62,634 nucleotides of DNA from Folioceros fuciformis (Eukaryota): NCBI GenBank assembly GCA_049999805.1, contig JBNGIO010006249.1, positions 464,796 to 527,429 of the forward strand, written 5' to 3'. The notes below the pieces were generated by a model, which saw only the letters and a list, made by a program, of their open reading frames with translations, was not told where the DNA came from and searched no databases. Position 1 is the first letter of the stretch; each line of letters begins with the position of its first letter. Positions 18,524 through 29,345 of this stretch are shown one piece after another. The position numbers and the translations under genes were made by a program.

Positions 18524-18943
18524 TCAACGCTGCCAACGAAACTGTCGCTCGGTCTCCGCTATGGCAACATCGTTGATGCTGGCCTGGCGGTGCTCCATGA
18601 GGCCGTCGTCGTCAAATTCCCACAGCTCATTGCCATAGGATCTCCACCACTGGCCCGCAGCATCGTGCCACTCGTACTGGAAGGTGACGGCTATGCGGGT
18701 GTCCGAGAAGCAGAAGAGCTGCTTCCGCAGCCGGTAGTCCAGTTCCTTGGTCCACTTCGCCCGCAGGAAGGCCCGAATCTGGTCTCGGCCTTGCAGGAAG
18801 GTTCCCCGGTTTCTCCACCGGGATCCCGGGCTGTAGGCCAGTGACACCCGGTCGGGGTCCCGGCTGTTCCACCCATCTTCGGCTGCCTGAACTTTGGCCC
18901 GCGCAGTCTCTTCTGTGAAAGGCGGTTTGATGGGCGACGCCAT
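18524..18943 (-). CDS. DUF1348 / SnoaL-like (NTF2-fold) protein, intronless, 139 aa
   Basis: [86 protein letters not shown]...GLM..RQASIND matches the bacterial/fungal DUF1348 pattern. Confidence 0.9.
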
Positions 18944-19135
18944 GCTCTGTGCTCTGCTCTGCACTGCTCTCCGCACTTGCACAGCACTTCAAAGCCCACA
19001 TATATGCCCTCCTGCATTTTGAACCACTGAGATACTGACACAAAGTTCTCACCGCGGTTCGTTCACACTGACAGCTTTCTGACTCGGCCAGCGATTCAAT
19101 GCAGCTGCAGCACCCGTCCTCCTGTTGGGCTGCCC

Positions 19136-22100
19136 ATGGCGGTGCGGGAGGACATGCTGAGGCCAATCCACTTTCATGGGAATCTGCCCACCGCAGTTTC
19201 TGGGTTCCTGCCGACCGCTGGAAGGAGTTACGCAGTGGGTATGGCCGGGGAGGCTGGGAGGACCGTACAGTTCCGGGTGAAAGTGGAATTGGAGTGCTCC
19301 ACTGGTGAGTTGAGTTCGAGTTGCGTCTCGAAGGATGGCCTTGTGATGGAGCATGTTGGGTGTCATAATGGTGTTTCAGAGCCATCTAATGTTTGGTTGG
19401 GGAGGCAGGAGGATCTCATGGACAGATCGAGAGGGAACGGGTGCAGCTGCTGTGGGAGGACTTCTTCTCGGATCCTTCTTTGTGGTGGGACAACAGGTTG
19501 GAGAAGGTATGTTTGTTGCAAGGCATTGACATTTCCTCTTCTGTGAAGTGGTAGAAGGTGGACAGGAAGAGGTTTAAGTGCTCAGTATGTGCAGTCTGCT
19601 CTTGTTTGCAGAGAACTTCTCTGGCTCCGGACTTTGCACATAAGAGAAAGGGAGATGTTCTGTGGGCTCGCAGCAGGTTGAATCCTCCTTGGACGGAGTC
19701 ACGGCTGGCGCTGTATGAACTACCTGCAGACGTGGTGTCGAATTCTGGGACTGATGTTCCCGCGCCCATATGGTGATTGTTGCTGTGTAAAAGATTGCAT
19801 TCGTAACGTTGCTTGCGAGCCGCTGATGTTGATGCAAGGAAAAGGTAGCCAGTGCGGATAGTTTTGGACCCCTGTGTTAACTGAATGGAGCCTCCGCAGG
19901 GCACAGGGCAGAACCTGCGAAGCTCAAATATTATGTGAGCAGGGGAGGCTGGAAGAGGCCGTGGATGCTCTGCGTCTCATGGGTCAGAAGGGCTGCCTGG
20001 CGTCGGTGCAGACCTATTTCGAGTTGTTGCAGGCGTGTCGAAAACAGAAGGCCCTGCATGAGGCTAAGAGAGTGCATGCTCACATGGTGGAGAATGGACT
20101 TGAGAGCAACACATTTCTGGGTGAAATTTCAGTGAATGTGTTTGTTAAGTGCGGGGATCTGCCAAAAGCAGTCCTGTTGTTTGACAGACTACGTCGACGG
20201 ACGGCCTTATCTTGGGCTGCACTCATTTCAGGATATACAAACGCTGGACAAGGTCAAAAGGCGGTCATGACCTACAAAGAGATGCGAAAGCAAGGCGTGG
20301 AACCAAACAAGTACACGTTCGGTGTTGTTCTCCAAGCTTGTAGCCTTCCTGTGGACCTGAAAGTGGGGAGGCAGGTTCATGCCGAGCTCGTGAGACGCAA
20401 TTGGGAGTCTGATTCTTTCCTGGGTAAGTGTCTGGTGGGCATGTATGCCAAGTGTGGGAGCATGGTGGGTGCACAGCATGTCTTTGAGACTCTATCAAAG
20501 CGTGATTTGGTGTCATGGAATGATATGATTAGGGGCTATGTGAAGGATGGGAAGGGTGAGACAGCGATTGACCTCTACTTCCAAATGCAAGAAGAAGGCA
20601 CGCACCCAGATAAATGGACCTTTGTGAACGTGCTAAAAGCTTGTATTTCTATATCAGCCAATGAAGAGGAGATGCTGATTGATGGTCAGGCTCTCAAAAT
20701 GGGTTCTTTACAACAGGGGAAGGCTTTGCATGCTGAAGTGGCCGTAAGAAATTTAGAAACTGATGTCTTTGTGACCAACTGTCTGGTTAACATGTATGCC
20801 AAGTGTGGGAGTCTTCAGAATGCCCGACAAGTATTTGACGGACTGTCGCATGGGAACGTGGTGTTGTGGAATACAATGATAGCAGGTTACTCTCAGCAAG
20901 AAAAGGGTGAGAAGGCTTTGCAACTTTATGCCCAAATGCAACGGTCTGGTTTGAGACCTGATCAGCGTACATTTGTAAGCGTCTTGAAAGCATGTGCTGT
21001 CCAGGGAGCCCTTGAAGAAGCCACTTTGATTGATGGACAGCTGTGGAAGCTGAAGTCCCTGCAACGCAGTAAAGTTGTTCATGCTGACGTTGTCAAAGCA
21101 GGCTGTGAAATGGATGTCTTCGTGGAGAACACCATCGTAGACATGTATGCAAAATGCAGGAGCATGTCGGATGCCAGGTCCGCATTTAATGCACTGTCTC
21201 ACCGCAATGTTGTATCATGGAATGCAATGATGCAAGGGTACTTGGACGAGGCGGATAGTGAGAGTGCCATGCAACTATACAGCCAAATGCAAGAAGAGGG
21301 GATCAGACCTGACCACTGGACATTTGTGTGTGTGCTGAGGGCATGCAGTGACTTGGCTGTGGAGGAAAAGGATACTGTTGTCACTGGAGTACCAGTCAAA
21401 GAGAAGTCCTTGCGACAGGCGAGGAAGATTCATGCTCGACTAGTTAGTTCGGGTCTTGACTCAGATCTATATGTTGGCAATACGTTAATGGATTTGTACG
21501 CTAAGTGTCGGAGCCCTGTGGATGCTCGGACTGTTTTTGACACATTGTCCCAGAGGAACGTGGTGTCTTGGAACGTTATCATTGCATGCTATGCTCAGGA
21601 AGGAAATGGACATGAAGCACTTCAGCTTTATGCTGACATGCAAGGTTGTGGATTCAGTCCCAATGACCGCACATTTGTGAGTGTCCTTATGGCCTGCGGG
21701 ATCCTGGCAACAAAGGAGGCAGAGACGGTTGTTGATGGCCAGCAAGTTAAAGTTCAATCTCTACAGAAAGGCATCATGTTGCATGCCGAAGTCGTTAGAA
21801 GAAGCTATATGTCGGATATCTATGTGGGGAACGCTATGGTGGACATGTATGCAAAGTGTGGATCCATCGTAGATGCACGGCAGGTGTTCGACTCTTTGCC
21901 CCAACGAACTGTGGTGTCCTGGAATGCTATGATTGCAGGTTATGCTCAACAGGAAGAGGGTGAGAACGCTTTGCAGGTGTATGAGCAGATGCGGGCTGTT
22001 GGTGAGATGCCAGATGACCGAACTTTTGTCAGTTTGCTAAAGGCCGTGAGCAGCCTGGCATGTAAGGAGGTGGAAACTATCACAGATGGTGCGGCAGTCA

Positions 22101-23257
22101 AAGTGAAGTCACTAGAGAAGGGTGAGGCTCTGCACGCTGAGGCTATTAGGATGGGTTTTGAGTCTGACTTGTACGTCAAGAACACATTAGTTCGGATGTA
22201 TGCGAACTGTGGGAGCCTTGCCAAAGCGCAACAAGTGTTTCACTCTTTATCCCAACCAGATGCGGTGTCGTGGAATGCCCTCATTGCTGGATACAGTCAG
22301 CAGGGTCGGGCTAACCGTGCTCTGCAATTGTATGGTGATATGCCACATGGTGATGTGCAACCCACCGAAGCAACGTTCCTGAGTGTACTCAGAGCGTGCA
22401 GCATTGTAGGGTCCCTGAGGTGGTGCAAACAAATCCAATCGGACATTGTACAGTGCGAAACAGAGTTAAGTATCCGTGTGTCAAACACGCTGATCCATGC
22501 TTTTGGTCGATGTGGGAGCATGAAAGATGCACAAGATGTGTTTAACACCATGCCGCATCAGCACACTGTGGCGTCCTGGAACGTACTGATTGCAGGATAT
22601 GCCAAACAAGGCGATTCTGCAACAAGCCTGCAGTGCTTTGAGAATATGCAATTGTCAGGTTTGAAGCCAGATTCTGTCACCTTCGTTTCGCTTCTTGCAG
22701 CATGCAGTCATGGAGGAATGACAGACAAGGGCCTGGAATTCTTCAATTCCATGAGCGAGGTGTTTGGTATCACAGCAACAAGCGCTCACTATGTCAGCAT
22801 TGTAGATCTCCTCAGCCGTGCAGGGCTTTTTAGCAAGGCAGAGCAGTTGCTCTTGGCCATGCCAGTCCAGCCTGATCTGGCAGTCTGGTTGTCGCTCCTC
22901 AGTGGTTGCAGGAAGTACGTCAACATAGAGCTTGGACGACGTGCCTTTGAGCATGCCGTCAGGTTGGATCCCAAGCAAGGTGGCCCCTACATGCTCATGG
23001 CTAACCTCTACGCCCATGCCCAAATCTGGCAGCAGGCCAAAGAGATAGAAGGATTGAGAGTCCGTGCGGATGCTCCGAAGAAGCACGGGGAGAGCTGGAT
23101 GGAGGTCGGTGACGATGTGCATCAGTTTGCAGTGGGAGACACCACCCACCCACAAACTCACCATATCTACCAAAAACTCGATGAACTGAGTGCGTACGTG
23201 CAGAATGGGCATCTCGCTCCCTCCCAATGCGAAAGGGAAAGTCTGGCAACGTTGTGA
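19136..23257 (+). CDS. PLS-class PPR protein (E/E+, no DYW) with LL-type motifs and an N-terminal OSB-like PDF motif; 4 exons, ~1261 aa
   Basis: Exons 19136-19304, 19409-19506, 19612-19772 and 19900-23257 join in frame through GT-AG introns. Exon 4 is a long P-L-S array (MYAKCG/VVSWN repeats) ending in E1/E2 and a PG-box-like KKHGESWMEV..HQFAVGDTTHP. Exons 2-3 encode LWEDFFSDPSLWWDNRLEKRTSLAPDFAHKRKGDVLW..NPPW. Confidence 0.88.
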
Positions 23258-23483
23258 CCCATGCAGGAATTCCAGGGTCGTGTATGTACAAAATCCTCTC
23301 TTTTTGTCCATTATTCTCGCAGAAATGAACCGAGCACCCACCGTGTTCCGCCCACCTTCCTTTTGGCAATGATTTGCGATGTGGACGATCGCAGAAATGG
23401 CACTTGGATATCTATCTGGCTGCAGTAGGAAAGACTGCTGAGATTATGGTTCTGCAGACGGAGTATCTGATGTGCAACACCAG

Positions 23484-24412
23484 ATGTCGGACCTCTACAA
23501 GGTGCTCGGCATATCGCCCGACGCTTCCCAGGAAGAGATCAAGAAGGCGTTTCGGCAGCTGGCCCTCAAGTACCATCCAGACCGTCACGTTCACGACTCC
23601 CAGGCTCAGCAGGATGCTGCGGTACTGCGCTTCAAGGAGCTTGCGCAAGCATATGAGGTGCTGAGCGATGACAAGAAGAGGGCTTTGTATAACAGGGAGG
23701 CCAGAGCCAGGAGGTATGGAGCTCCTTCGCATGGAGCCGGAACTACTTCATACCGACAAGCATACGGTGGCGGCTCATACAGTACCCGGGGACCAGGCAG
23801 CAGCACCACCACTGGGGTTGGAAGTCGAAGTTTCTGGAGTCGGAGCTTCTCGCGTGCCGATCTGCTCATTCATGCTGTGATTCTAGGGTCGGTCAATGCC
23901 TTCATCTTGCTCCTGAATTAGGGTTTACTTCCCCGATAGCTTCCTACAGGCGTAATCCGATGCTGGCTGCAATAGCTGGGAGCTGTCCTTGCCGTTTTCG
24001 TTGCTGTTTGGATTGGTGACATTTTTGTGCGTGTTATCGCAGAATTGCGTACACCGGCCTGGTTATCGCTGATCCGTTTGGAGATTTTGTCTGGGGAAAG
24101 AAGAATGCTGGTGTAAGCAGTTATCCCTTCACATCCTTGTTTCTAAGTCACGTCAAATCCTGCAGATCTGGGTGCATCTTTGGTTCTGAGTTTTCTAGGA
24201 AACTCAAGCTCGGTTTTGAGGATGTGTTGCTTGTACTTGGATGCTTGCATGATTGCTGACTCTTGAAGGATGGCGTTCATTTGTAGAAAACCTTTGAAGA
24301 CACAATGGAAGCTGTGAAAAAAGCTCAGGCGCACGATGGCCCCGACAAGGAATCACAAACAACCATTATTTCCAGCACAGGAGCAGCGGGCAGTGCGTCA
24401 GACCGACAGTGA
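23484..24412 (+). CDS. Small DnaJ (J-domain) protein with C-terminal TM segment, DnaJ72-like; 3 exons
   Basis: [29 protein letters not shown]. Exons 23484-23887, 24043-24112 and 24287-24412 (..[18 protein letters not shown]). Confidence 0.88.
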
Positions 24413-25236
24413 TCCTCACACTGTGTGGAATGCTGGAATGTACGTGGTTACGTTGGATTCTGGAGAGGCAACAGTGCTGGTGAACTTCACCCGCACGCCC
24501 CTGTGGCTGTGTGGATCTGGGGAGACTGTCTTTTCTTTGAGGTTTCAATTTCTCACTTCCTTATCTCCTCCGTAAGGCGTCCGTTTCCTTGTTTGGCATT
24601 GCAGGTGGAGTTGCAATCTCTCATCCTCGTTTTGTCTTTCATCTTTCAGGTTCGGAGAGCGTCGTGGCCACAGCCAAGTATGTCGCATTCACCAACATAT
24701 TCATTCACCGAGTATTCGCAAGAACCACACCTATCTAGTCTGAAGAAGAGGAAGTGATTAAGGATTAGTTCACCTCACGCCCTTATCCGAGGGTCACACA
24801 GGAAGATCACTCTTGTTTAGGATCACAGTGTGTTCCAAGGAATTGTGGCTGGCCACAAAAGCAGGTGAAAAAGAATTCTCTCCGATCTTTCTTGGCGCCG
24901 GCGGGATATCCGTCCACACAAAACGCGCTACCCTATGTGCGGCTGCTGCAGATGTTACGAAGCATTCAATTGAGATCAATCAAGGGACATGATTTCTCAT
25001 GCATTCGTCCCGGGTTACTGAGTGTGGCATATCGGCAGTGCTGCTTGCGAGTTGTTGGGCTGCATTTGCTGCACTCCACAACATTCCAGCCGGGAGTGTT
25101 AGCATGCTGCAGTTCGATTGCTTGCTCTTGTGATTTTCATCCTTGTGCCTTGCCATGCGGCCATCTCCACCCACGTGATCATCTGCATCGTTGGCTGTTG
25201 AAGACCATCTATCTCAGGTTCCAGCTTCCTCCACCG

Positions 25237-29245: not shown

Positions 29246-29345
29246 NNNNNNNNNNNNNNNNNNNNNNNNNNNNNNNNNNNNNNNNNNNNNNNNNNNNNNN
29301 NNNNNNNNNNNNNNNNNNNNNNNNNNNNNNNNNNNNNNNNNNNNN
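29246..29345. other. Assembly gap (100 N)
   Basis: Run of exactly 100 N flanked by C/T-rich low-complexity sequence. Confidence 1.

Follow-up and report, generated by a model that had tools for sequence, protein, structure and literature searches.

The stretch of Folioceros fuciformis DNA analyzed here, hereafter the window, comprises 62,634 nucleotides (nt) of contig JBNGIO010006249.1 in assembly GCA_049999805.1 (positions 464,796 to 527,429 of the forward strand). Between positions 19136 and 23257 it harbors a plus-strand gene whose product joins a PDF motif, known from the single-stranded DNA (ssDNA)-binding proteins of plant organelles (OSB proteins), to a pentatricopeptide repeat (PPR) array of the RNA-editing type. 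From the N terminus, the protein is made of a short leader, one PDF motif, a linker of ~30 residues, a long PLS-class array, E1/E2 motifs and an E+ motif. We conclude that the locus is a genuine nuclear gene with four exons, that it is expressed, and that it belongs to a non-seed land plant. Judged by sequence, the fusion is not a unique chimera and represents a conserved family of non-seed plants, whose mode of action we infer.

Gene structure and splicing

The four exons listed in Table 1 are translated into a protein of 1261 amino acids (aa) with a terminal stop only. In genomic DNA, the frame of exon 3 ends at a TGA (19774-19776), so the fusion of the PDF motif with the PPR array depends wholly on the removal of intron 3; the long PPR frame is open from 19862. 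Splicing was examined in contigs from two public runs. One of them (X1) matches the window without mismatches in all seven listed contig pieces and contains 61% of the sampled words of 19100-20300. The other (X2) derives from a related species and is ~92% identical to the window. Both are labelled only 'RNA? (a guess)' and neither is on record as RNA; we took them as cDNA because their contigs carry joints that skip introns with GT..AG ends.

All three introns are skipped in X1 contigs. Record 2 joins 19303/19408, which equals 19304/19409 given a 1-nt (G) ambiguity; record 3 joins 19504/19610, equivalent to 19506/19612 if the cut is moved by +2 (shorter side 39 nt, depth 3); and record 4 joins 19771/19899, equivalent to 19772/19900 if the cut is moved by +1 (shorter side 34 nt, depth 8.2). 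In X2, a single 2092-nt contig spans exons 1-3 and reaches 526 nt into exon 4. Its joints at introns 2 and 3 are the same as in the window, and the shorter side at intron 3 measures 162 nt. Exon 1 is longer in X2 by 42 nt (14 codons, in frame), with the donor located 36 nt further on and 5 nt of its own. These contigs bear out an initial annotation of the locus, which had proposed from the genomic letters that three short upstream exons belong to the PPR gene: its exon coordinates, GT-AG introns and intron phases were all found again, and the peptides that it quoted were recovered letter for letter.

An alternative reading is that a small PDF gene lies beside an independent PPR gene, and that the joined form is a chimera created by assembly or read-through. 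The stop at 19774, which closes the frame of exon 3 in genomic DNA, would fit such a reading, as would the ATG at 19979, which could start the PPR protein alone, and the lack of an RNA record for X1 and X2. However, the contigs that cover the TGA show the spliced form instead of a separate small gene ending there. Furthermore, the joint 19772/19900 keeps the frame, is flanked by GT..AG ends and occurs in two species, and the combination of PDF and PPR recurs in 62 proteins, some of which have the C-terminal half of the motif and the PPR array in one open reading frame (ORF), as described below. The artefact is thus largely refuted, and we consider it very improbable.

Further X1 data concern exon 4. 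A 7029-nt contig is continuous from 20532 past the stop codon to beyond 23600, which indicates that exon 4 has no further intron and that the stop at 23255-23257 stands; the contig extends into the next gene and is no proof of one single transcript. No X1 contig bridges 20425-20531, a place that lies inside one open frame, and we attribute this assembly break to the repeat-like character of the PPR sequence. Two additional runs (X3 and X4) cover conserved pieces of PPR repeats only. At the 5' end, the covered leader contains an out-of-frame ATG (19099-19101) that opens an upstream ORF of 111 codons in the spliced RNA, overlapping the main start; the X2 alignment begins only at 19106, downstream of this ATG. 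Exon 1 is presumably an organelle-targeting region.

Table 1. Features of the PDF-PPR gene and of its surroundings (positions of the window)
Feature	Coordinates	Strand	Remarks
5' leader	19072-19135	+	Covered by an X1 contig that starts at 19072; true transcript start not deducible from contigs
Exon 1	19136-19304	+	Start codon, 56 codons and 1 nt; N-terminal leader; junction to exon 2 in X1
Intron 1	19305-19408	+	104 nt, GT..AG, phase 1; skipped in X1
Exon 2	19409-19506	+	PDF motif, N-terminal half (profile positions 1-19, the last being the invariant Lys), encoded by 19450-19506
Intron 2	19507-19611	+	105 nt, GT..AG, phase 0; divides the PDF motif; skipped in X1 and X2 (1 contig each)
Exon 3	19612-19772	+	PDF motif, C-terminal half with the P-D-F triplet, encoded by 19612-19710; remainder, linker
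Intron 3	19773-19899	+	127 nt, GT..AG, phase 2; contains the in-frame TGA; skipped in X1 and X2
Exon 4	19900-23257	+	Single open frame: PLS-class PPR array, E1/E2, E+, 21-aa tail, stop codon
PPR repeats	19919-22915 (approximate)	+	~8 P-L-S triplets and terminal motifs; from Pfam and repeat spacing
E motif (E1/E2)	22916-23104	+	PF20431, exon-4 residues 1006-1068, 34.4 bits (cut-off 27.3)
E+ motif	23117-23191	+	PF20430, 25.9 bits (cut-off 24)
DUF1348/SnoaL-like gene	18527-18943	-	PF07080, E 4e-64
DnaJ-domain gene	23484-23921	+	PF00226, E 1e-24
Assembly gap	29246-29345		Run of 100 N

Identity and predicted fold of the PDF motif

The PDF motif is described in reviews as an element of ~50 aa that binds ssDNA in OSB proteins (PMC6963530, PMC4166229, PMC13393729). 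For its detection we used a profile of 54 positions (A1) made from 16 aligned PPR-linked copies of other proteins, with invariant columns W2, W13, D14, R16, K19, P25, D26, F27, L36, W37, P44, W46 and V47. Residues 71-122 of the spliced protein match positions 1-52 of the 54 with a score of 69.2 bits (E 1e-23), and each half of the motif is detected by its exon alone (33.6 bits for exon 2, 34.6 bits for exon 3). The window motif retains 12 of the 13 invariant columns and six of seven nearly invariant ones, and P25, D26 and F27 are present. No other match above 5.5 bits was detected in the six frames of the window.

When the profile was compared with 1.84 billion representative proteins, 1264 matches were obtained at E<=1e-3, 554 at E<=1e-10 and 68 at E<=1e-30. 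The best 150 of the 1264 are 10 PPR proteins and 140 others, the latter with a median length of 367 aa and mostly with 2-5 copies that end ~18 residues from the C terminus; of the 150, all but one were classified together, and the remaining one, P0005, was already known as a PPR protein from the homology search with exon 4. In a sample of ten non-PPR matches, seven had the Pfam SSB domain upstream of the PDF copies; two of these SSB matches passed the curated cut-off, whereas five fell short of it. Seed-plant proteins with the names OSB1, OSB2 and OSB3 were matched at E values from 1e-31 to 1e-74, their sources being Eutrema, Amborella, Raphanus, Elaeis, Cryptomeria, Populus and many more. Copies of the OSB type align with this PPR-derived profile over all 54 positions, at 54-79 bits per copy, and the invariant residues of PPR-linked copies are those of OSB copies. 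Because one and the same profile retrieves OSB1, OSB2, OSB3 and SSB-domain proteins, we consider that the window carries a true OSB-type PDF motif, homologous to that of OSB proteins. The similarity on which the initial annotation hinged is therefore present.

Searches in Pfam were uninformative for this region. None of the three short exon translations, that of exon 1 included, matched a family, and in whole PDF-bearing homologues the PDF region was covered by no family, which indicates that the Pfam copy searched lacks a PDF model. A word-index search among shorter proteins with the PDF region of a DYW-bearing homologue of Calypogeia (P0020) yielded 10 candidates with no OSB among them, and was superseded by the profile searches.

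Structure prediction from a 16-row alignment rendered a compact domain made of a helix, a beta-hairpin and a helix (mean pLDDT 88, pTM 0.68). A search of the ESM Atlas with the PDF region, skipping PPR families, gave no usable match. In the PDB, a sequence profile search returned one chance-level match to a lectin (E 0.75), Foldseek returned nothing at E<=0.001, and the best Z score obtained with VIA-align against 48,161 chains was 2.3.

Unexpected sources were also among the profile matches (P0131, P0164, P0312 and P0161). They include dinoflagellates, with multi-copy proteins of Effrenium voratum (9 copies) and of a Symbiodinium-type record, the green alga Ulva mutabilis, with an SSB+PDF protein, and Coptis chinensis, with a kinesin-motor model in which two genes may have been merged. 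The range of the PDF motif beyond land plants looks wider than reviews state.

The PPR array and its C terminus

The translation of exon 4 matches the Pfam families PPR_2 (PF13041, E 2.5e-139) and PF01535 (E 7.9e-101), and its E and E+ motifs score above the curated cut-offs (Table 1), as expected from the PLS-E/E+ assignment made in the initial annotation. No match to the DYW deaminase (PF14432) was found in the same translation. A tblastn search over 22800-24500 with the C terminus of a DYW-type homologue detected the E/E+ region only and no DYW remnant. The 21-residue tail that follows E+ bears a 16-nt deletion in X2, and is therefore not conserved. We classify the predicted exon 4 product as a PLS-class PPR protein of the E+ subgroup, without DYW.

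The structure of this C terminus bears on the possibility that the protein is not an editing factor but has another role in organellar RNA (stabilization, processing or splicing) or a DNA-related one. Neither a DYW domain nor a downstream remnant of it exists, and the tail differs between the two species, as would suit such a role. However, the great majority of PLS proteins that have E and E+ motifs act as specificity factors of editing, and both motifs score above the curated Pfam cut-offs. A non-editing role appears quite improbable to us.

A peculiarity of the array is that five of the eight P-L-S triplets have 117 aa instead of 101, with a 16-aa insert between the L-motif helices (20900-22200, residues 346-930). 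A triplet spacing of 108-125 aa is found in 49 of 127 related proteins, including those of Selaginella moellendorffii and Diphasiastrum complanatum and many Logan contigs. Homologues of the PPR portion show 30-47% identity over 65-99% of the query, and the nearest named ones are lycophyte proteins.

Distribution and origin of PDF-PPR proteins

One to three copies of the motif precede the PPR array in 19 of the 120 best PPR relatives if a simple pattern is used, and the profile raises the count to 22, two of them with weak, partial matches only (P0019, 22.5 bits; P0071, 16.2 bits). Homology and profile searches together provided 364 proteins: 266 match PDF, 160 match PPR, and 62 match both. This result modifies the interpretation given in the initial annotation. 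The linkage of the exons, the PDF homology and the PLS-E/E+ type stand; the view of a singular chimeric protein does not, as PDF and PPR are found together in 62 proteins of lycophytes, liverworts, mosses and a fern.

Relevant features of these proteins can be summarized as follows:

(i). Order and copy number. In 61 of the 62 proteins, all PDF copies are N-terminal to the array; the exception (P0084) resembles two PDF-PPR genes merged. One copy is present in 26 proteins, two in 28, three in 7 and four in 1.

(ii). C-terminal motifs. E1/E2 motifs are detected in 52 proteins and DYW in 10, while 10 proteins, many of them fragments, have neither. E motifs without DYW are found in 42 of the 62.

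(iii). Sources. Roughly 35 different PDF+PPR loci belong to the lycophyte Diphasiastrum complanatum (O6H91_* entries). Other named sources are the liverwort Calypogeia fissa, the mosses Sphagnum jensenii, S. fallax and S. compactum, and the fern Adiantum capillus-veneris (GOP47_0023879); the Adiantum entry P0166 has two full copies. The PPR matches of Cryptomeria and Ginkgo among the best relatives have no PDF motif, in a sample too small to prove absence from seed plants. In public records, members of the family go by 'hypothetical protein' or simply by PPR.

(iv). Intron position. Eighteen of the 27 PDF matches that consist of the C-terminal half only begin at profile position 20-21, which is the site of intron 2 in the window; this coincidence suggests that the intron site is old. 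In four moss-like, ORF-called proteins (P0053, P0057, P0123 and P0125), the match starts at profile position 20 and the C-terminal half is followed by the PPR array in one uninterrupted ORF. Since both share one frame, nothing separates PDF from PPR in these species.

The history of the motif was examined in a FastTree phylogeny of 465 distinct full-length PDF copies (54 columns). Six changes between the states 'PPR-linked' and 'other' suffice to explain the tree, and 86 of the 89 PPR-linked copies, that of the window included, fall into one clade of 97 with a local support of 0.80. The remaining 11 members of the clade are eight copies from seven short fragments (107-169 aa) and three second copies of longer non-PPR proteins (249-342 aa), two of which have the Pfam SSB domain, one of these being from Adiantum. 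The copies nearest to the window motif in this tree belong to Diphasiastrum. On a tree of 54 columns, such a distribution hints at a single origin of the PPR-linked copies. Altogether, the predicted proteins form an old, conserved family, represented in lycophytes, liverworts, mosses and a fern, whose members have between one and four PDF motifs ahead of an editing-type PPR array.

Relation to known proteins and to the literature

The protein encoded in the window shares with OSB proteins a PDF motif of ~50 aa with the invariant Trp, Asp, Arg, Lys, Pro-Asp-Phe, Leu-Trp and Pro-x-Trp. OSB proteins, however, have a central SSB-like OB fold and carry their PDF copies at the C terminus, whereas the window protein has a single PDF at residues 71-122 of 1261, N-terminal and followed by the PPR array, and none of its exon translations matches the SSB domain (PF00436) even at E<=1. 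Absence of the SSB domain and the N-terminal location of the motif indicate that it is not an OSB. With PLS-class E+ PPR proteins it has in common the P-L-S triplets, E1/E2, E+ and the lack of DYW; it differs from them in the additional N-terminal PDF and in the 16-aa L-motif insert of five of its eight triplets. The closest architecture is that of the uncharacterized proteins of Diphasiastrum, Calypogeia, Sphagnum and Adiantum, where PDF copies and PLS array come in the same order. Differences within this group are the number of copies (one in the window, one to four elsewhere), the presence of DYW in 10 of the 62, and the lack of an intron between PDF and PPR in the moss-like members.

No link between PDF and PPR came up in a full-text search that covered 8.1 million open papers along with 0.36 million preprints; subscription surveys and supplements were outside its scope, and an earlier mention is possible. 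A single review that contains both the PDF motif and the term pentatricopeptide handles them separately. The accessible portion of a 2022 review on moss PPR proteins names RRM, SMR, NYN and LAGLIDADG as extra domains and does not include PDF there, and the sole 'OSB' string in that portion is the name of an author (PMC9459714). A paper on liverwort mitogenomes surveys OSB by the SSB domain only. As far as we could find within the open literature searched, the PDF-PPR architecture is undescribed.

Neighboring genes

The PDF-PPR gene is flanked by two others (Table 1). The DUF1348/SnoaL-like gene lies head to head with it. In X1, the contigs of the two transcripts have 19072-19081 in common, and in X2 a single contig contains both; these observations suggest that one bidirectional promoter serves the two genes and that their 5' ends overlap. 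The DnaJ-domain gene begins ~230 nt past the PPR stop codon; as the 7029-nt X1 contig (depth 139) starts within the PPR gene and continues across the DnaJ gene, the 3' end of the former and the 5' end of the latter probably overlap or abut. An assembly gap is found farther downstream.

Possible mode of action

PLS-E+ proteins bind RNA in parallel orientation, with their N-terminal motifs toward the 5' end and the last S motif four nucleotides upstream of the edited C, and recruit a DYW deaminase in trans. If the window protein behaves in this manner, its array would read ~25 nt of an organellar RNA just upstream of the target cytidine, and the deaminase would come in trans. Because binding is parallel, the N-terminal PDF module would be placed on the 5' side, outside the RNA footprint, where it might add single-strand nucleic-acid binding that is independent of sequence, either to increase affinity or to keep the upstream RNA open. 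Organelle targeting, the role in editing and the ligand of the PDF motif are aspects that we infer. Taken as a whole, the gene structure, membership in the PDF-PPR family and the action of PDF as an auxiliary binder on the RNA side of an editing-type PPR protein provide the best explanation, to which we would assign a probability of roughly 0.55.

Several observations weigh against this explanation. Support from the organism itself amounts to one low-depth X1 contig per junction, and the out-of-frame ATG at 19099 within the covered leader makes the translated start uncertain. The protein does not have a deaminase of its own, and E+ proteins can serve roles besides editing. As the PDF fold has no solved relative in the PDB searches, structure gives no hint of the ligand. 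Lastly, the preference of OSB proteins for ssDNA over RNA, as stated in a review, is easier to reconcile with a DNA tether than with an RNA clamp (PMC4166229).

The latter consideration leads to the main rival, in which the PDF module would bind organellar ssDNA in transcription bubbles, R-loops or replication intermediates, and thus place the PPR protein by nascent RNA in the nucleoid, where it would act during transcription; this was the leading idea of the initial annotation. According to reviews, the PDF motif suffices for AtOSB1 to bind ssDNA (PMC6963530), and OSB1 and OSB2 favor ssDNA over double-stranded DNA or RNA (PMC4166229). Besides, PPR-linked copies keep the invariant residues of the OSB motif. 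Binding of DNA by PPR-linked copies is, however, itself putative, and the separate clade formed by 86 of the 89 copies (in a short alignment, with a support of 0.80) leaves room for divergence in the ligand. The tether is possible but rather unlikely in our estimate; it stays the main rival because of the reported preference of OSB proteins for ssDNA over RNA.

A third view is that PDF contacts a protein instead of a nucleic acid, and recruits or stabilizes a partner such as a DYW deaminase in trans, an OSB or another copy of itself. The 42 of 62 PDF+PPR proteins that have E motifs but no DYW need a partner, and conserved aromatic residues abound in this small, compact domain. Yet 10 of the 62 keep PDF despite having their own DYW. 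We hold this view to be improbable and rank it third, behind the auxiliary single-strand binder and the ssDNA tether.

A broader speculation, which we offer as a long shot, is that the PDF-PPR combination arose once, early in land plants, from a PDF copy of an OSB protein, and became a general accessory module of editing PPR proteins in non-seed plants that either couples them to ssDNA at the transcribing nucleoid or itself fulfills the helper function that MORF/RIP proteins have in seed-plant editing. MORF/RIP proteins are not known outside seed plants.

Significance

PPR editing factors serve as programmable RNA-binding scaffolds, and editing in non-seed plants is thought to be simple, with one PPR-DYW protein per site. 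If the PDF-PPR architecture were already present in the subscription literature, the value of this work would fall to the correct annotation of the gene in the window. The role of PDF is open to direct test in existing heterologous editing systems. A conserved, additional nucleic-acid-binding module at the N terminus of dozens of PPR proteins would alter current views of their affinity, target access and sub-organellar location, and the PDF motif would gain a second biological setting besides genome maintenance. Were the speculation of a single-origin accessory module true, the editing machinery of bryophytes, lycophytes and ferns would have a whole layer that has been overlooked.

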